Shown here in pieces: positions 174 to 24,419 of a stretch of DNA of 25,662 nt. A program made the translations under genes and the position numbers. Location: contig JBAMMA010000013.1 of NCBI GenBank assembly GCA_039794005.1, forward strand, positions 1 to 25,662, read 5' to 3'. Numbering within the stretch: the first letter of the stretch is position 1; every line of letters begins with the position of its first letter. Source of the DNA: Thermoplasmata archaeon (lineage in GTDB: Archaea; Thermoplasmatota; Thermoplasmata; Thermoplasmatales; ARK-15). The notes beneath the pieces were generated by a model. That model was not told the origin of the DNA. It ran no database searches and worked only from the letters and a program-made list of their open reading frames with translations.

Positions 174-1637
174 TTAAACTATGGGTATTAACCTTAGATT
201 TGGATATTTACCATCATCTATTTCAAGACCAAACAAATTTGTACTTGGCCTGATTCCATAAATGGTCAATGTTCCAAAATTGTTTTTAACATTAAATACA
301 TAGTCGCTCATCTGCAAAATTTCATCCGCCATTTTGAATGGATATCTTACCAGCAAAATCAATGGAACAGAATATATTTTGATCATTCTGATAATGTCCA
401 TTATAATTTCGTTAGATTTATTGGTTCCAAAAATCAATTCCAACGTATCAACATTTATGATAATAACAATTTTATTCATCGAATTTTCCTGAATGATATT
501 TTTTAAAGTTATTTTTAAATCATAGGGATTGTGGGACAATGGAACTATTGATTTTTCTCTTTCCCTTGCATCCTTGTCGAAGAGGTAAGAATTATTCAAT
601 ATTATTGAATCGTCAAAATATTTTTTTAAAGTATTAAAGTAAAAGTCCCTTGATACTATTGGAGATGGAATGTAAATCAGTTTTCTATTGTTCAGGGAAT
701 TTAAAATTATTGGTATTATTATGAAAAAGTAATCTCCATAGGAGATATTTTCGCAAAAGTAAAATGTAAGGGTCTTTCCTTTTTCGAGACCATTCCCTAA
801 AGCTTCGTTAATTTCATTCCATGGCAACTTAAAATTCTCATTATCTTCAAGTACCGGTTTAAATGATCCCTCTTCGTAATTTTCCTGTATATTTGGCTTC
901 AAGATATTAAATCTGCCTTCATTTAAAGAAAATAAATACAATGAATTATCTATATGGGTGTTTCTTAATTTATTTATTCTTAATTTTCTAATTCTTCTTG
1001 TTTCTTCAATATCATATGAAAATTCTAATATTACATCACATAATGCATCTAAAGAAGATTCCTCGGTTTTCTCTACGGAAAATATAAAAATATCATTAGT
1101 CTTTTTGAATATATCCTCCTGTAATGAAATTACGAGGGATTCTTCATCGATATTGTATTTAGATGCTAAACCTTCTATGGAATCTATGATAACAATATAT
1201 TTTTTATTTGTATCCTCCTCCAACTTTTTATAGATATAATCAATTTCAGGTACAGCTTTCATCTTAAAATATTTGTTATAAAATATTCTGGTTATCATTT
1301 TTTCTTCAACAGTGTTTGAAATAACTTCCTTGGCGTTTTGCCTTAAATTTTCTTTATTCTTTTCCTTTAAATTATCTTCGTATAAAATTTTCAGTAAAGC
1401 CTGACTGGAAATAACTAATGAAATCTTCTTTTCTAAACTTTTCAACCAAGGAAATTGATTATAAAGTACATCAACATTAACCCTCGTGCTAAAATAGATT
1501 ATTTCATATGAATCTTTTAGATAATCGGACAACGTCAATAAAAATGTGGTTTTACCTGAACCCGGCATTCCCTTTACCATCATAGTAAAGCCAACATTCA
1601 TTGAGATTATTCTGTTCAATTCATTTAAATATTTCAT
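174..1637 (-). CDS. GvpD-like / RAD55-KaiC superfamily P-loop ATPase, paralog 1 (active-looking N-terminal RecA-fold domain plus degenerate C-terminal repeat)
   Basis: 487 aa ORF. Walker A GMPGSGKTT, YFSTRV motif as in halophile GvpD (YVSTRV), Walker B IVIIDS, KLR arginine-finger motif. The second domain starts with PWNEINEALGNG but lacks Walker A. G-rich RBS upstream. Confidence 0.8.
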   Translation of the reverse strand: MKYLNELNRIISMNVGFTMMVKGMPGSGKTTFLLTLSDYLKDSYEIIYFSTRVNVDVLYNQFPWLKSLEKKISLVISSQALLKILYEDNLKEKNKENLRQNAKEVISNTVEEKMITRIFYNKYFKMKAVPEIDYIYKKLEEDTNKKYIVIIDSIEGLASKYNIDEESLVISLQEDIFKKTNDIFIFSVEKTEESSLDALCDVILEFSYDIEETRRIRKLRINKLRNTHIDNSLYLFSLNEGRFNILKPNIQENYEEGSFKPVLEDNENFKLPWNEINEALGNGLEKGKTLTFYFCENISYGDYFFIIIPIILNSLNNRKLIYIPSPIVSRDFYFNTLKKYFDDSIILNNSYLFDKDAREREKSIVPLSHNPYDLKITLKNIIQENSMNKIVIIINVDTLELIFGTNKSNEIIMDIIRMIKIYSVPLILLVRYPFKMADEILQMSDYVFNVKNNFGTLTIYGIRPSTNLFGLEIDDGKYPNLRLIPIV

Positions 1638-2071
1638 AATATACCCCCCAAATTTTTATTTTTTATTTGGTAATAATATTTTTATAATTTTTATTACCGT
1701 AATAATTTATTTAAATTTTACTAATTTTTTAATTGTTAAAAATGAGAGAATATATAAATAATTTAACCATTAAAATCATATATTAATTTATTAAAATTTA
1801 TTAATTAACTATATTGACAATATTAAATAAGAATATTAACTGATGAAAAGATTATTTATTAGTCAAATTAAATAATATAGTTTATTAAAAATAGATAATT
1901 TTGCCCTTGAATGATAAAAATTATCATAAATATTGAGATCAAACAAAAATGGATCATATTAAATTTACAAATTTATATTATAAAATTTTTCAAATTTATT
2001 TAAATGGATATGAATTAAATTTTTAATTAATTTTTATCATGATAAAAATTGGATTTTATGAATTAAAATTC

Positions 2072-2103
2072 TAATGTTGTATAACATAGGTTATACAACA
2101 TTA
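2072..2103. repeat. Perfect inverted repeat; candidate XerA dif / tyrosine-recombinase site
   Basis: TAATGTTGTATAA-CATAGG-TTATACAACATTA. Core 11-6-11 (2074-2101) with inner TATAA-N6-TTATA as in dif sites. The repeat is seen directly; the function is inferred. Confidence 0.6.
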
Positions 2104-2113
2104 TAGTTTTTTG

Positions 2114-3290
2114 GTCAACTATTCCTCGCTAAAGCTTCGGAGCTTGTTGCATGTTTCCCCTAAACTGTGGATGGAATTCATCAAACCGCAACGATCGTCG
2201 GCTGAAAACAGCCTGAAGTACTCGGATGTACCGAATACCCCGACATTCCTTGATGCGTTCAGATTTGCATTAAATTCAAATCCACAATTTCTGTATCTGA
2301 ATGCTGAACTATGCCTGTTATTTTTATCTATATATTCAGACCTTGAACATTTCGGCGATGTGTGTTCGGGATTTACATATACCACAATCTTACCTGAATC
2401 CTCTGCTTTGTATTTTATGAATATTTCCAGTTCTGCCGGTGACCGTGAACCAAGCATCTTCCTGTATTTCTGCCCTGCCCATTTTGCATTCACTTGTGCG
2501 GGATTCAGTGTTTCAAGTGCAATCATATCATATGGATGTGAAACCATTCTCCTGAAAATAATATGATCAACATCACACACGAACCGTCTCTCCCGCCTGG
2601 ATATATTTCGCAATTTTCTTTTGGCAGAGCGGGTGCCTAAGTGCTGTAATCTCCTCTTTAAATATTGATATCTTCCTTTCACTTCCCTAAGATGTTTGCT
2701 GTTGAAAAATATATTGTTCGACAGCACAGCAATGTTCTTTATTCCTCTGTCTATTCCTAATACTTTAACATCCTCTTTTTAATCACCTCCCTATCAGGAA
2801 TCTTTACCTGAACCATTATGAATATTCTTTTACCCTTTCCATATATTATTAATTGAAAATTTGTATATCTGCCCTGTATCTCTCGATTAAGGGGAATGCG
2901 CCACCTGGATATAACAGCCTGTCCGTAACGTGGTATTGGATATCCCATGTGAGTCAGGATAGAATTTGAAAATAATTAATATTTTATTGTTATAGCTTTT
3001 TCATTTATTTTATTCTTAATTTTTATTGACTTCAATTCTTCAGATGACTGATCCTAACCGTCAGAACAAGTACTTATTATTGTGTGAGAATCCTTTCCCT
3101 AACAATTTTGTATCTCCATTTATTGATAGCATTTTTATTGAATGTTCTATTCTCAAAACCATAGAACAGACCCATCAGTGTTTTTTCTTTGAATAGCTTA
3201 CGGTTTCAATGAATGAACTATCATTAAGAAGCTTTAGTCAAATGATTCTGAACAATATATATTAATATAAAAATTTATTAATAAATTTTT
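2114..3290 (-). mobile_element. Remnant IS200/IS605 (IS1341-like, tnpB-only) element
   Basis: tnpB pseudogene followed by a right-end-like imperfect hairpin on the minus strand (AAGCTCCGAAGCTTTAGCGAGGAATAGTTGAC) ending at about 2114. GC is higher than the flanks. The left end is not defined and no tnpA is seen. Confidence 0.65.
2119..3255 (-). pseudogene. tnpB: Degraded TnpB (IS200/IS605 family RNA-guided nuclease)
   Basis: The N-terminus reads MFRII*LKL... and GFENRTFNKNAINK with stops and frameshifts. RuvC-I VLGIDRG is in frame just upstream of the 2119-2727 ORF. RuvC-II IALE is present, as is VNPEHTSPKCS. The Zn ribbon is eroded (CSRS...YRNC) and RuvC-III reads NANLNASRN (D to N). Confidence 0.88.
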
Positions 3291-3889
3291 CAGGTGAGAA
3301 AGGTATGTGTATCTCAACCTCAAGGTCTATGTTTTACTGCTTCCCTTATACTCCTAACTTTTCTATAATAGAAAAGTCATTTAAGAGATGAAATATATCC
3401 GTTTTAGATGCATTAAGTAAACTAAGTAATGTATATAGAATTGAATTGATGGAGAATTGTACACAACTTTAAATGTGAAACATTGATAAAAATAAGTTTT
3501 TCCAGGAAAAAATAGAGGACATAGTATATAAAAATACCTAAAGAGGTAGATAATTAAATTAAAAATTTTTAAAATAAAATATTAATTATTTTCAAATGTT
3601 AAAAAAATAGATGAATAATAAAAATTTTCTCTGTAATACAAACATATGCAATTCCAATTTTTAAATTCTTTTTAAAGGATTATTCCCATAAAAAAGTTAA
3701 TTTAATTAATTTTGTTAATAAATAATATTAATTAAATTAATGATAAGTTTATTTTAATATATTATAATTTATTTTAAATTTGATACTACAATAATTATAA
3801 AATATATTTAAATTTACCTTAAATATTTCAGGAATTTACATTAAAAATCATCGAAAAATTTATTTGATTTGTAATTAATTTTTGAAATA

Positions 3890-6286: not shown

Positions 6287-6398
6287 AATTGATAAAATTG
6301 AACAGAAACTAAAAAATTTTTTATATTTAACAAAAATTAAATATTATTATTACCTTTAGAAATAATAATAAAAATTGGTAATCGGAGGGAGGGTAAAA

Positions 6399-7871
6399 AT
6401 GAAAAATTTTGTTGAATTGTTTAAAGTTATAAAACAGAATATTCCCTTTACAATGATGGTAAAAGGAATGCCCGGTTCTGGAAAAACAACCTTTTTATTA
6501 ACATTATCGGATAATTTAAAAGATTCATATGAAGTAATTTATTTTAGTACCAGAGTCAATGTTGATATACTTTATAGCCAATTTCCTTGGCTAAAAAATT
6601 TAGAAAAGAAAATATCTTTAGTAATATCAAGTCAGAGCCTTTTAAAAACTTTGTATGAAAAAAATTTAAAAAATGATGGAAGAGAAAAGATAAAGGAAAA
6701 TGCGAAAGAAGTTATTTCAAATACAGATGAAAATAAAATAATAACCAAAATATATTATAATAAATTCTTTAATATGAAGTCTGTTCCTGAAATAGATTAT
6801 ATCTATAAAAAGCTAGGTGAAGAAAGGGATAAAAAACATCTTGTTATAATTGACTCAATTGAAGGTCTGGCATCTAAATATAATATCGATGAATCATCAA
6901 TTATATTATCCCTTCAAGAGGATATTTTCAAAAAGACTAATGATATCTTAATTTTTTCCGTTGAAACGACGTCAGAAACTGTATTAGATGCGCTTTCTGA
7001 TATAATTTTCGAATTTACCTATGAGATAAAAGATTCAAGAAGGATAAGAAAATTGAAAATTAATAAATTAAGAAACGATTATATCAAAAATTCATCTTAT
7101 CTATTTTCATTAACAAATGGAATATTCAATATATTAAATCCAGAATTAACAATGAATTATGAGGATGGAAAATTTTATCCTCTTCCTGAAAATGATAAAA
7201 ACTTTAAGTTGCCTTGGAATGAAATAAACATAATTATAGGCAATGGTATTCAAGGTGGAAGATCATTGACACTTTATTATGGAGAAAACATTTCATATAG
7301 AGACTATTTATTCATTATTATTCCTATAATTTTAAATGCAATGTATAACAGAAAGTTAATATATATTCCTTCACCCGTTTCATCTAAAGAATACTATTAT
7401 CAGACATTTAAAAAATATATAGATGATGAAATAATTAAAAATAATTCAATCTTTTTCGATAAAGATTTAAGGGAAAGAGAGTCCTTTTCAGTTCCTTTTT
7501 CATTGAATCCAGATGATAATAAATTAACCCTAAAAAATCTAATAGAGGATTTCAAGGGAAAAAATGAAAAAACTGTACTCATTATAAATTCAGATTTATT
7601 TGAAATTTTATTTGGCGTAAAAAAAGCAGCAGAAATAGTATTGGACATATTAAGAATGATCAAAAGTTTCGATATACCATTAATAAACATAATCAGGTAT
7701 CCATATAAAATAACCGATGAAATATCTGAAATGAGTGATTATATATTCAAGATAGAGAACATTGATGGAAATTTATTAATTTACGGTATTAGACCCAATT
7801 CAAATTATTTTGGTTTTGATATTGACGAGGAAAGAAAATATCCCAATATTAAATTAATACCCATATTATAA
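6399..7871 (+). CDS. GvpD-like / RAD55-KaiC superfamily P-loop ATPase, paralog 2
   Basis: Collinear with paralog 1 along its full length and has the same motifs. ATG at 6399 follows a GGAGGGAGG RBS and aligns with the paralog 1 start, so it is preferred over TTG 6375. Confidence 0.8.
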   Translation: MKNFVELFKVIKQNIPFTMMVKGMPGSGKTTFLLTLSDNLKDSYEVIYFSTRVNVDILYSQFPWLKNLEKKISLVISSQSLLKTLYEKNLKNDGREKIKENAKEVISNTDENKIITKIYYNKFFNMKSVPEIDYIYKKLGEERDKKHLVIIDSIEGLASKYNIDESSIILSLQEDIFKKTNDILIFSVETTSETVLDALSDIIFEFTYEIKDSRRIRKLKINKLRNDYIKNSSYLFSLTNGIFNILNPELTMNYEDGKFYPLPENDKNFKLPWNEINIIIGNGIQGGRSLTLYYGENISYRDYLFIIIPIILNAMYNRKLIYIPSPVSSKEYYYQTFKKYIDDEIIKNNSIFFDKDLRERESFSVPFSLNPDDNKLTLKNLIEDFKGKNEKTVLIINSDLFEILFGVKKAAEIVLDILRMIKSFDIPLINIIRYPYKITDEISEMSDYIFKIENIDGNLLIYGIRPNSNYFGFDIDEERKYPNIKLIPIL

Positions 7872-19156: not shown

Positions 19157-20077
19157 ATGTTGATCAGGGTGCCTTCAAAATTGATTTTATTCGGTGAACA
19201 TGCCGTTGTTTACGGAGAACCGGCAATCTCCATGGCAATCGATTTTTATTTTTACATTGAATTTAAGAAATCTGATAAATATCTCATTGACAACAAAATT
19301 CCTGATCCAAAGTTTCATTCATATATTCTAAAGGCACTGGAATTAACTCAGTACAATGAGGGTTTTGAAATAAATATAAGATCTCATAAATTTCATAGTT
19401 CAGGATTGGGATCATCCGCAGCTGTCACAGTAGGAACGGTTGCATCAGTATTAAAATTAAAGAATGAATTTCAGAAGGAAAAGATTGCAAAAATATCATT
19501 TAATGTTGAATATGAAGTTCAGGGAAGGGCAAGTCCTATAGATACATCCACTGAGACTTCTGGAGGAATAATATACATAGGAAATAATTATGGGCAGAAA
19601 TTGTGGGATATAGAAAAAAATGGAATCACCTGGGAAATAAGGAGATTAAAAGACATAAATTTGGAATTTATTGTTGCAAATTCGGGGATCAGAAGTTCAA
19701 CATCAAATTTGGTTGCAAAGGTCGCAAGGTTTGTAAAAAATAATAAATTTGGAATGGAAATAATTAAGGAGATAGGAAAATTAACCGAAGATAGTATAAA
19801 ATACATAGAAAGCATTGATTATGAAAAAATAGGAGAATTGATGAATAAAAACAACAAGCTTCTTACAATTTTGGGTGTTGGAAATAGAGTTACTTCTTAC
19901 ATAATAGATAGAGTCTCACCATACTCATATGGGGCGAAAATTACAGGGGCGGGCGGAGGAGGGTCTGTGATTATTTTACCTAAAAATAAGGAAAAGGTCA
20001 TTGATATATTGAACAGCATTAACATACCAAATGTAGTTGTTAATACAGATCTGGATGGTGTTAAATTATCTGACTAG
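19157..20077 (+). CDS. mvk: Mevalonate kinase (GHMP family)
   Basis: [41 protein letters not shown]. Confidence 0.9.
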
Positions 20078-22466
20078 ATATTTTCAAAATTGTTTTTACA
20101 GCATCATTTTCATCAACATTCATTAACTTTATTCCCTGAGAATTTCTTCCTTGTATGGGTATTTCATTAACTTTAAATGCAATTGTCATTCCATTCTTTG
20201 TCTGCAGCATTATTAAATCGTTTAAATCAACAACCATTACTGATACAAGATCTCCTGTCTTATCGTTGACCTTCTGTCCCTTTATTCCAACGCTGCCTCT
20301 ATGAGTCTTTCTAAATTCGTTCATCCTCGTTAATTTGCCTTTTCCTTTCTCCGTTACCGTTAATAGAAGGGAATTTTCGGTTCCATTGGTCATTGAGATT
20401 ACTTCATCTCCATTTCTAATCTTAATTCCAACTACTCCATATGCATTCCTTCCCATTGGCCTGATCTCTCCCGAATCAAATCTCACAACCATTCCCTTCT
20501 TTGTTGAAATTATTATTTCGTCATTATCATCTATCAACTTAACATCCTTTAAAATGTCGTTATTCAATTTTATGGCAATGATACCCTTTGATATAACATT
20601 TTTAAATTCTTCTACTGGTGTTTTTTTGACTATACCATTTTTTGTTAAAAATAAAACATATCCCCTTGAATTTTCATTGTATGGGATCATGTATACGATC
20701 TTTTCATCTTCATATAAATTGATGAAATTATTTATCGATTTTCCTATGGCTTTTCTGGACATTATTGGCAATTTATAAACATCCATTGAATATACCCTTC
20801 CGGTGTTCGTGAAGAGTAATAATTTATCCCTATTATTCGCTATGATTATTTGTAGAGGAATGTCCTCTCCGTATTCTGTTATTACTCCTTTACCGCCCTT
20901 TGATTGTGTCTTATATTCATTGATTGGAACCCTTTTTATGTATCCCCTTTCCGTAAGCGTGATTATAACATCCTCTGGAGGGATTAAATCCTTTTCTTCT
21001 CTCCTTATTACATTTTCTTTTACTATTTCAGTTCTTCTTTCATCCCCGTATCTCTTCTCTATTTCTAATAGTTCATCTATTACAAGATTGTATATCTTTT
21101 CATCCGATGATAAAATATCCTTTATTTTTCTTATTTCATCAACAATATTGTTTTCCTCCCTTATAATATCATCCCTCTCCATGGATGTCAATCTCTGGAG
21201 CCTCATTTCCAAAATTGCCTTTGCCTGAATTTCGCTTAAATTAAAACTCTTTTGAAGATTTAATGATGCTTCATTCGGATTTGAGGATTCTTTGATTATT
21301 TTAATTACTTCATCTATATTTTCAATGGCCTTTATTAATCCAGATAAAATGTGCTCCCTTTCCTCATCCTTTTTTAATTTGTATTCCAATCTCTTTTTGG
21401 TTATGTTAAACCTGTGCTTTGCGTATTCAGATATTAAATCCTTTAGGTTAAAAATCTTTGGTACATTATCCAGTACTGCAAGTAATATTATTCCATATGT
21501 AACCTCGAGCTGAGAATGTTCAAATAACTGATTTAAAACGATTTCCGGATTTGCATCCCTTTTTAATTTGAATATAACCCTTATCCCATCTTTATTGCTT
21601 TCATCTTTAATGTTAACAATTCCAGTTATTTTTTCTTCTTTGATGAGTTCTGAAATTTTCTGCAATAGTTCCGATTTATTAACTTCATAGGGTATTTCAG
21701 TGAATACAATGGACTTGCTGTTTTTATCTTCCTCTATTTTATATTTACCCCTTACCTTTATTGTACCCTTTCCCGTCCTGTAAGCATCCAGAAGTCCACC
21801 GTAATTTAAAATAACACCACCAGTGGGAAAATCAGGACCTTTTATTATATTGATCAAATCATCAACGGAACAATTATTATTTTTTATATAATAAATAATG
21901 GCATCTATAACGTCCCTTATGTTATGGGGAGGTATGTTTGTGGCCATACCTACAGCAATTCCTGAACTTCCATTTATCAATAAATTTGGAATGCCAGATG
22001 GCAAGTATACAGGTTCCTCCAATGTTCCATCGAAATTCTGCATCATTGGAACCGTTTCCATGTCTATATCCCTTAACATTTCCTCAGCAATTTTATTTAA
22101 TCTTGCTTCGGTATACCTCATCGCGGCTGGAGCATCTCCATCTATACTTCCAAAATTACCCTGACCCTCTATCAATGGATATCTATATGTAAAAGGTTGG
22201 GCCATTCTCACCAATGCCTCGTATATTGGGGATTCTCCATGTGGATGATATTTACCCATTACTTCTCCAACAATTCTTGCGCATTTCTTAAAGGGTTTAT
22301 CGTGATAAAGGTTCATTTCATGCATTGAATATAAAATCCTTCTCTGAACGGGCTTCAATCCATCTCTTACATCGGGTAAAGATCTTCCAATAATTACACT
22401 CATCGCATAATCCATGTATGATGATTTCATCACTTCCTCAATGGGCTTAACTTTTATTTCTTCCAT
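20061..22466 (-). CDS. gyrA: DNA gyrase subunit A
   Basis: [28 protein letters not shown] (catalytic Tyr), GyrA-box-like QSKGGKG, beta-pinwheel repeats. Confidence 0.97.
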
Positions 22467-22475
22467 AAAAACACC

Positions 22476-24419
22476 TCAAATATCCAGGTTCATGACTTCT
22501 CTCGCATGCTTTATTATGAATTCCCTTCTTGGTTCAACGGATTCGCCCATCAACAATGAAAACAATCTATCTGCTTCTGCAGCTGTTTCAATGTCTATTT
22601 TTATCAATTTCCTGGTTTCTGGGTTCATTGTTGTTTCCCAGAGTTGTTGTGGATTCATTTCTCCCAGTCCCTTAAACCTTTGAACTATTGGATTCCCTAA
22701 CTTCTTGAGCAATTCATCCTTTTCTTCATCTGAATATACATAATAAATGTCATTACCCTTCTGTATTCTATAGAGTGGAGGTTGCGCTATATAGATATGG
22801 CCATATTCAATTAATTTTTTCATATATCTATAAAAGAATGTTAAAAGTAGTGTCCTTATATGCGCTCCATCCACATCCGCATCGGTCATTATGATTATTT
22901 TGCCATACCTTAATTTTGAATAATCGAAATCATCCTTGACCCCGGTACCAATGGCGGAGATCAGTGCCTTTATTTCTTCACTTTTGAATGCCTTTTCGAG
23001 ATTGGCCTTTTCAACATTCAAGATTTTACCTCTCAGGGGTAAAATGGCCTGGAATTCCCTGTTCCTTGCCTGTTTTGCACTTCCTCCGGCACTATCACCC
23101 TCAACGATGAATAATTCTGTTCTGTTTCTATCCTCCAGGGAACAATCGGCAAGTTTTCCTGGGAGGAATAGATTGTCCATCCAGCTTTTCCTTCTTATAA
23201 ATTCTCTTGCTTTTTTCGCAGCTTCTCTTGCCTCGGCGTTCAATAAAACCCTTGCAACTATGGCCCTTGCAGTATTAGGATGTTCTTCAAGATATGTGGA
23301 AATGTTTTTTAAAGACAATGAATAAACAATCCCCTTTACTTCATTATTCCCCAATTTGGATTTTGTTTGGCCTTCAAACTGTGGCTCTGGATGCTTTAAT
23401 AAAATTACACATGTTAACCCCTCCCTGATGTCCTCTCCCGTAATCGTTATATCTTTTAATAAACCGTTCTTTTTTCCATAATCATTAATGGCCTTAGTAA
23501 GTGCTGTCTTAAATCCAACAACGTGTGTACCACCATCCTCCGTATATATATCATTTACATAGGATAATAGTGTTTCATGCTGCTGATCGGAATATTGAAA
23601 TGCAACTTCCAATATTATATTATCCTCTGAATCCTTGAAATATACCACATCGTTATGAAGGGGATTGTTACCCTCATTTAAAAATTTAATAAATTCAATT
23701 AATCCACCATCATATTTAAATTCCTCAACAGTATTATTTTGTAAATCCTTCAATACTATTCTAAGTCCGCCATTTAAAAATGCGAGATTTCTTAATTTAC
23801 CCCTTATTATTTCATAATCAAATTTAGCATTTTTGAAAATTTCTGGATCGGGCTTAAATCTTACAAATGTACCGCTAGGTGATTGTATCTCCATGATTGA
23901 GCCATCATCCAAGATTATAGGATAATTATTGATTTCACCTAAATCCTTTATATCATATAATTTTTTACCCCTTGAATAATCCTGTAAATACAATCTGTTA
24001 TTCCTTTTCACGGCTATCCTGAACTTTTCTGAAAGAAAATTGACCACATGTATACCAACACCGTGTAAACCTCCTGATACCTTGTATACCTTTTTTTCAA
24101 ATTTGGCACCCGAATGTAATTCGGTTAAAACGATTTCCAACGCGGGTTTACCGTATTCAGGATGTACCTCCACGGGAATTCCTCTTCCATCGTCCTCCAC
24201 ACTGACACTTCCATCAGGGTACATCGTGACAAATATATTTTTACAGAATCCTGCCAGGGATTCATCTATACTATTATTTACAACCTCCATCAAAAGTTGA
24301 TATAAACCTCTCTCATCCGTAGATCCAATATACATTCCCGGGCGTTTTCTTACAGCTTCTACGTCATTCAGAACCCTTATATCCTCTGCCCTATAGTCAT
24401 TACTTTTATCTTCTTCCAT
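22476..24419 (-). CDS. gyrB: DNA gyrase subunit B
   Basis: VRKRPGMYIG, DDGRGIP, SGGLHGVG, EGDSAGG, PLRGKILN, MTDADVDG, QRFKGLGEM. Confidence 0.97.
   Translation of the reverse strand: MEEDKSNDYRAEDIRVLNDVEAVRKRPGMYIGSTDERGLYQLLMEVVNNSIDESLAGFCKNIFVTMYPDGSVSVEDDGRGIPVEVHPEYGKPALEIVLTELHSGAKFEKKVYKVSGGLHGVGIHVVNFLSEKFRIAVKRNNRLYLQDYSRGKKLYDIKDLGEINNYPIILDDGSIMEIQSPSGTFVRFKPDPEIFKNAKFDYEIIRGKLRNLAFLNGGLRIVLKDLQNNTVEEFKYDGGLIEFIKFLNEGNNPLHNDVVYFKDSEDNIILEVAFQYSDQQHETLLSYVNDIYTEDGGTHVVGFKTALTKAINDYGKKNGLLKDITITGEDIREGLTCVILLKHPEPQFEGQTKSKLGNNEVKGIVYSLSLKNISTYLEEHPNTARAIVARVLLNAEAREAAKKAREFIRRKSWMDNLFLPGKLADCSLEDRNRTELFIVEGDSAGGSAKQARNREFQAILPLRGKILNVEKANLEKAFKSEEIKALISAIGTGVKDDFDYSKLRYGKIIIMTDADVDGAHIRTLLLTFFYRYMKKLIEYGHIYIAQPPLYRIQKGNDIYYVYSDEEKDELLKKLGNPIVQRFKGLGEMNPQQLWETTMNPETRKLIKIDIETAAEADRLFSLLMGESVEPRREFIIKHAREVMNLDI

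Follow-up and report, generated by a model that had tools for sequence, protein, structure and literature searches.

A dif site is a known kind of chromosomal element, and the closest studied counterparts of the site considered here are the XerA/dif systems of the Thermococcales and of Thermoplasma acidophilum. In archaea, a dif site is made up of a pair of 11-nt inverted repeats on either side of a 6-nt spacer, occurs in a single copy, and is cleaved at the ends of the spacer (PMC8371274). TAA-N6-8-TTA is given as the most conserved feature of the reported archaeal sites (PMC11840125). The sites of the Thermococcales have the form TATAA-N6-TTATA (Cortez et al., 2010, PMC2958812, supplementary figures S3 and S6), and for that of Thermococcus kodakarensis, the surrounding intergenic region measures 1.9 kb (Yamaura et al., 2025, PMC11840125). 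In T. acidophilum, two sites to which XerA binds, named dif1 and dif2, have been described, one of which, dif2, is functional (PMC8371274; PMC11840125, citing Jo et al., 2017).

The DNA analysed here, hereafter the window, is a stretch of 25,662 nt. It corresponds to one whole 25.7-kb contig of the assembly of an uncultured, AT-rich hot-spring archaeon of the Thermoplasmata (assembly G000; 1.10 Mb, 20 contigs, 87% complete). A sequence-only reading had proposed that a palindrome near its left end is a chromosomal dif site or another site of a tyrosine recombinase. When this site is set against the published archaeal ones, TATAA-N6-TTATA is found as in the Thermococcales, and 12 of the 22 arm positions agree by eye with the Thermococcales consensus. 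Likeness to the XerA/dif systems of Pyrococcus abyssi and T. kodakarensis extends to the length of 28 bp, the 11-6-11 layout and the near-symmetric arms. It also includes the single copy, the long intergenic region away from xerA, the AT-rich and partly symmetric flanks, and the presence of one XerA. Our site differs from those of the Thermococcales in two respects. The outer six arm positions are ATGNNG here, and a conserved C and a conserved G at the ends of the central region lead to a 12-4-12 symmetry. The T. acidophilum system belongs to the same class as our archaeon, and Thermoplasmatales and Thermoplasmataceae indeed appear in the titles of site-bearing contigs. The genomes with two sites reported below have a parallel in dif1 and dif2.

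A second comparison is offered by the Xer-exploiting mobile elements of bacteria (IMEX) and by the dif modules of Acinetobacter plasmids (PMC5357621). As in those elements, variable DNA is joined here exactly at a Xer-type site without a private integrase. In IMEX, the inserted DNA lies between the chromosomal site and a second one, which is often degenerate. Here, by contrast, neither a second flanking site nor a circular form nor genes of such an element were seen, and the variable DNA is a surface-glycan gene cluster. Our literature search found no paper on Xer-exploiting elements in archaea.

Layout and conservation of the site

The coordinates of the features discussed in this work are collected in Table 1. 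Perfect 11-bp arms extendable to 13 bp had been claimed for the palindrome and are present. Indeed, all 11 positions are complementary between the two arms, and TA at both outer ends brings the arms to 13 nt. The claim of an asymmetric 6-bp spacer holds in part: C2085 pairs with G2090, giving a 14-4-14 palindrome, and asymmetry is confined to the middle four bases, ATAG. The arms contain G/C pairs, as had been noted, unlike most long palindromes of the assembly, and the AT-rich intergenic setting is also as described. As single-stranded DNA, the palindrome 2072-2103 is predicted to fold with -12.2 kcal/mol (z -6.4).

Table 1. Location of the site, its neighbours and related genes (window positions, unless a contig of assembly G000 is named)
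Feature	Location	Strand	Remarks
28-bp dif-type core	2074-2101		arms 2074-2084 and 2091-2101, central region 2085-2090; from sequence reading
Perfect palindrome including outer TA/TA	2072-2103		14-nt arms, 4-nt centre
Imperfect outer symmetry	2065-2110		A-rich left, T-rich right; 21-nt arms (2065-2085 and 2090-2110), 90% complementarity
AT-rich ORF-free spacer	1638-2073		436 nt, 12.8% G+C; between ATPase gene and site
KaiC/GvpD-like P-loop ATPase gene	174-1637	-	487 aa; Pfam
KaiC/GvpD-like ATPase paralogue	6375-7871	+	65% identical
Decayed tnpB-only IS200/IS605-family element	2108-3381	-	Pfam Cas12f1-like TNB, OrfB_IS605
tnpB C-terminal ORF	2119-2727	-	stop codon 16 nt beyond site
gyrB-gyrA operon	20061-24419	-	~18 kb from site
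XerA gene, intact	G000 C1:34384-35217		278 aa; other contig than site
Further tnpB-element copy	G000 C14:1-122

Assembly G000 contains 11 distinct perfect inverted repeats with arms of at least 11 nt and a spacer of 4-8 nt. Two of these have arms of at least 13 nt, and a single one, the palindrome at 2072-2103, has arms of at least 14 nt and is thus the longest-armed perfect palindrome of the assembly. In 20 first-order Markov simulations, 6.7 repeats with arms of at least 11 nt and 0.5 with arms of at least 13 nt were expected per genome. The site is also the sole exact match to GTATAA-N6-TTATAC in the assembly. At genome scale, the palindrome by itself is not clearly beyond chance, and its significance therefore comes from its conservation in other genomes.

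The 28-mer had been expected to be single-copy, and it occurs at one place in this 87% complete assembly when up to three mismatches are allowed. One place was likewise found with the family pattern (20 fixed positions, up to four mismatches). A better dif site elsewhere in the assembly was looked for and no better candidate was found. One rival palindrome, at G000 C20:43664-43692, was rejected because 0 of 40 relatives carry it. This is a perfect 12-5-12 palindrome with G/C-rich outer arms, and probably a local operator or a chance occurrence.

As an exact 28-mer with up to three mismatches, the site was found in 8 of 100 other relatives, and the control gave none. We then freed the variable positions, which yields the family pattern ATGNNGTATAA-N6-TTATACNNCAT, used with up to one mismatch and with the reversed pattern as a control. 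This pattern matches 51 of the 169 genomes of the order, as compared with 1 of 169 for the control, so that conservation in relatives is borne out. At this stringency, about a third of the order matches, including 28 of its 74 high-quality genomes. Matches are distributed over families f1 (7/15), f3 (9/26) and f7 (34/103), with none in f5 (0/21). Matching genomes nearly always have one place each, which is intergenic and lies beside varying genes. The two matches of G011 represent one locus at two contig ends.

Five genomes have two different places (up to one mismatch). In G093, G063, G099, G129 and G109, the central regions differ between the copies, and recombination between the copies would consequently be blocked. 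Two of them carry both sites on one contig, 110-122 kb apart (G093:C1:653560 and 775727; G063:C5:126781 and 237420). In G096, one place lies inside the ORF of a Na/H exchanger and looks like a chance match. Among the 11 single-contig genomes of the order (up to two mismatches), seven have one site, one has two and three have none.

In the class as a whole, 64 of the 388 genomes with a completeness of 90% or more match with up to two mismatches, vs. about 21 genomes for the control. Outside the order, clean palindromic sites are seen in families f14 (3/3), f15 (9/73) and f31 (2/2) of the class. An exact scan of 185,579 species, with one genome each, returned 16 stretches, 13 of which are titled Thermoplasmata, Thermoplasmatota, Thermoplasmatales, Thermoplasmataceae or “Methanobacteriota archaeon”. 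Another is an “Aenigmatarchaeota” contig whose site and flanks are identical to those of a Thermoplasmata contig. The other two are in bacterial bins, and one of these is located inside ORFs at 70% G+C. The AT-rich core is retained in contigs of 67-69% G+C.

The site was not found everywhere. Family f5, which has XerA, gave no convincing site: at up to two mismatches, 12 genomes yielded one chance-like match, and in 5 genomes the 10-base core was no commoner than the reversed control. G001, a genome of the same genus as ours (82% complete), yielded neither the site nor any DNA match to that part of the window which comprises the ATPase gene and the site. G111, which belongs to family f7, has at C4:34017 (L028/L177) a 31-mer identical to the window site in wholly unrelated flanks. 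No ORF of at least 100 aa is present within 3 kb of this locus, and other members of the genus of G111 carry f7-type arms. Transfer, mis-binning or convergence are possible explanations.

Conservation at the positions fixed by the pattern is circular, and these positions were left out of the count. The positions left free are informative across 31 related loci. Complementarity between the arms is maintained at 8-11 of the 11 positions. At arm positions 4-5, a change in one arm is matched by a change in the other, for example TT with AA, CC with GG, and AC with GT. The first C and the last G of the central region are kept in 29 of the 31 loci, and its middle four bases vary freely. Such co-varying arms around a free centre are what the binding of one protein to both arms predicts. 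In the flanks, the relatives show a weak preference for AAATA on the left and TATTT on the right (0.5-0.8 bits).

XerA and the position of the site on the chromosome

The XerA protein of G000 matches the PDB entry 5hxy, “Tyrosine recombinase XerA” (E 2e-76), which we take to be the T. acidophilum protein, as well as 4a8e (E 1.5e-50). XerA orthologues are present in 160 of the 169 genomes of the order and in 73 of the 74 high-quality ones. A search for xerA beside the site, made in the complete genomes and in five genomes of other families, did not find it there. The integrase domain (Pfam PF00589) is absent from the 91 site-flank proteins scanned, so that the gene of the enzyme that acts there must lie elsewhere.

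The sequence-only reading had suggested that the site could mark a region close to the replication terminus. Position was studied in three complete relatives (G024, G036 and G151), from each of which 40 stretches of 20 kb were sampled. In G024, the raw GC skew as well as the principal component of the 4-mer skews mostly tracks gene orientation, and an orientation-corrected GC3 skew was used instead. In G024, the cumulative GC3 skew is a clean V with a minimum at 890-910 kb, and the site is located at 914,056 of 1,826,943, 180 degrees away from a Cdc6 paralogue at base 1. In G036, the site (896,599) is 80-140 kb from a skew maximum, and the two cdc6 genes lie 28 and 46 degrees from the site. 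For G151, the position of the site agrees with neither turning point of the skew. Thus, with skews that are weak, G024 is consistent with the suggestion, and G036 and G151 do not show that polarity. The two-arc fits are weak, accounting for 25-32% of the variance, and were equalled by 14, 2 and 8 of 200 permutations. The skew profile of G094, available for the first half only, has no clear switch and was left out of the analysis. Measured from the weaker Cdc6 paralogue, the angle of the site is 180 degrees in G024, 46 degrees in G036 and 115 degrees in G151, and about 154 degrees in G048 and 145 degrees in G094.

The two flanks of the site

An exact scan of metagenome contigs gave 62 stretches with the site and no match to the exact 31-mer of the window. 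A contig end lies no more than 100 nt from the site in 33 of the 62, where 4.5 would be expected, and the end distances cluster at values expected for an assembly graph that branches at the edge of the site. One site type, represented by 36 loci, has one constant flank, and its families Rt1 and Rt2 reach the ATPase gene after 190-250 nt. The opposite flank of the same 36 loci falls into nine families, with genes for sulfatase-family proteins, FkbM methyltransferases, a hexapeptide transferase, a glycosyltransferase and a dTDP-sugar epimerase. Hence, in related hot-spring populations the ATPase side is constant and the other side carries differing surface-glycan gene sets from the first base beyond the site. 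L233 and L234, for example, share 99.7% identity along 3 kb of the ATPase side, and on the other side they are unrelated from the site edge onwards. The same break at the site edge is observed for L244/L242 and for L240/L250. Chimeric assembly at the shared 28-mer is possible in these breakpoint contigs, and the Rt1 and Rt2 lineages have left-flank types in common over just 41-53 nt. The variable flank always meets a contig end within about 3 kb.

If arms travelled with their flanks, pairs of loci should show it. The corresponding test, dominated by one site group, was not supportive: 32 pairs were for, 80 against, 100 had both arms identical and 16 had neither. No second site was found within 3 kb of any locus, and no second site or half-site above chance in the 25.7-kb window. 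Contigs of three hot-springs metagenome runs contain parts of the stretch. A 585-nt contig of X1, a run that resembles the source of the window, is identical to 1800-2384 and thus continues across the site into the adjoining insertion element. The run contigs, which cannot show rare variants, contain no alternative joint at the site. In G010 (L005/L180), as compared with the metagenome contigs L229, L232, L233 and L234, the whole 28-bp site, with both arms and the centre, is inverted beside a homologous ATPase-side flank, where identity is 90% or more across up to 60 nt. This inversion is not accounted for by simple recombination at the site.

These breaks raise the question of whether the site serves as an attachment site or junction for mobile or exchangeable gene islands, acted upon in trans by XerA or another recombinase, so that dimer resolution is not its use or not its sole use. 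Flank replacement exactly at the site in near-identical genomes and the clustering of contig ends are in line with such a junction, as are the identical 31-mer of G111, a member of another family, and the five genomes with two places. Moreover, the site lies in or beside a low-GC island in all three sampled complete genomes: at 800-1050 kb in G024 (0.30-0.34 vs. 0.37), at 897-917 kb in G036 (0.31 vs. 0.40) and at 1764-1882 kb in G151 (0.41-0.43 vs. 0.46). Transposase, toxin-antitoxin and defence genes are also frequent in the flanks. However, the flank proteins scanned include no integrase, and no second site was found either within 3 kb of the loci or, with up to four mismatches, in the rest of G000. 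In addition, 7 of the 11 single-contig genomes have exactly one site, and housekeeping genes are syntenic with it at the genus level. Island exchange is also compatible with a dif site rather than exclusive of it, as the bacterial Xer-exploiting elements illustrate. As a replacement for the dif reading, a junction of this kind therefore appears unlikely.

The genes next to the site bear on another explanation, according to which it is a transcription-factor operator or some other single-copy protein-binding or structural site, such as a domain boundary or a centromere-like site, at which no recombination occurs. In the ORF-free gap around it, long AT-rich intergenic DNA provides a setting suited to an operator. 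The gap has a median of about 950 nt in 20 closed-gap loci and reaches at least 700 nt in 15 of them; background gaps in G024 have a median of 95 nt, and 2.7% are of at least 700 nt. Its symmetry and its place upstream of one and the same ATPase gene, in four genomes from part of family f1 (G000, G012, G010 and G015) and in many metagenome contigs, could be read in the same way. However, the site-to-ATPase distance ranges from about 80 to 437 nt, and the adjoining genes differ across the order. GTP cyclohydrolase II is found at 7 of 8 loci of genus g6 and a short-chain dehydrogenase at 5 of 8, a radical-SAM-like protein adjoins the site in G002, G008 and G007, and a chloride channel, SAICAR synthase, aldehyde dehydrogenase and transposases occur elsewhere. 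None of the gene families is a constant neighbour. Genes for transposases, AbiEii and HEPN often adjoin the site, and the locus is syntenic within genera, with flanks that are unrelated between genera. This argues for a stable chromosomal locus and not for the operator of one gene. Central bases that vary freely while the arms co-vary, and homology that breaks at the site edges, are not expected of an operator either. Finally, recurrence of the motif in front of many genes was looked for, and there is one copy per genome. We consider an operator or other non-recombining site very improbable.

In the window, the two divergent ATPase genes bracket the site together with about 4.7 kb of small genes. 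In several relatives, as in many metagenome contigs, the site adjoins an ATPase homologue that matches the GvpD basic region. The other genes of the window are ordinary and include, besides gyrB-gyrA, those for a GNAT acetyltransferase, a phosphoesterase, a macro-domain protein, a 2-oxoacid:ferredoxin oxidoreductase, an ABC transporter, and threonine-dehydratase-like and GHMP-kinase proteins.

On the other side of the site, the mobile debris reported in the sequence-only reading is there, in the form of a decayed tnpB element ending about 10 nt away. Several in-frame stops interrupt tnpB in its upstream part. Judged by eye, the gene has a replacement of the last catalytic aspartate and lacks some of the zinc-finger cysteines. 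A DNA search of G001 gave 51 matching pieces, all within 2108-3398 of the window and with a modal right end near 2114. Their shared extent indicates a multicopy insertion element of about 1.26 kb with its right end about 10 nt from the site. Many of these pieces are located at contig ends, which together with their number indicates that the element is or was very active in the genus. A second copy in our own assembly, at G000 C1:1-600, is 80% identical and has no palindrome. The notion that the palindrome belongs to the tnpB element, as a right-end hairpin, a part of the guide RNA or a terminator, draws on its place just past the stop codon, on the 3' side of the gene, and on the T-run that follows it on the + strand, but it is refuted by the C1 copy, by the 51 G001 pieces, none of which includes the site, and by the dozens of genomes that carry the site without an adjoining tnpB, and an Rfam scan of 1600-3600 gave no match at E up to 1 either.

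Proposed function and meaning for the Thermoplasmata

Taken as a whole, the sequence comparisons indicate that 2074-2101 is most likely the chromosomal dif site of this archaeon. The proposal of a dif or tyrosine-recombinase site gains support from the single copy, the conservation relative to the control, the TAA-N6-TTA core and the co-varying arms. It is further strengthened by the near-universal presence of XerA in the order, by the lack of a private integrase nearby and by the synteny breaks at the edges of the site. The unusually long ORF-free gaps that hold the site, comparable to the setting of the T. kodakarensis dif, point the same way.

In a model following the known systems, two XerA monomers would bind the two 11-bp arms, and two sites on a chromosome dimer would then synapse. 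XerA would cleave at the borders of the 6-bp central region. Strand exchange via a Holliday junction would finally give two monomeric chromosomes, dimer resolution being the presumed role of the site.

The dif site may, in addition, be the fixed edge of a strain-variable island, with XerA swapping or integrating whole islands at it, as an archaeal counterpart of the Xer-exploiting elements. We put this forward tentatively, as a possibility that is on balance doubtful.

For a large part of the Thermoplasmata, the present results provide a testable dif consensus of about ATGNNGTATAAC, four free bases and GTTATACNNCAT, which covers many uncultured lineages from hot springs and acid habitats. The site is a landmark for the ordering of contigs and, once origins are mapped, for replication termini. 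The population data suggest that strain-specific surface-glycan clusters are joined to the core chromosome at this site. If XerA does the joining, Xer-mediated gene mobility would be extended to archaea, and the breaks of metagenome assemblies at the site would be explained.
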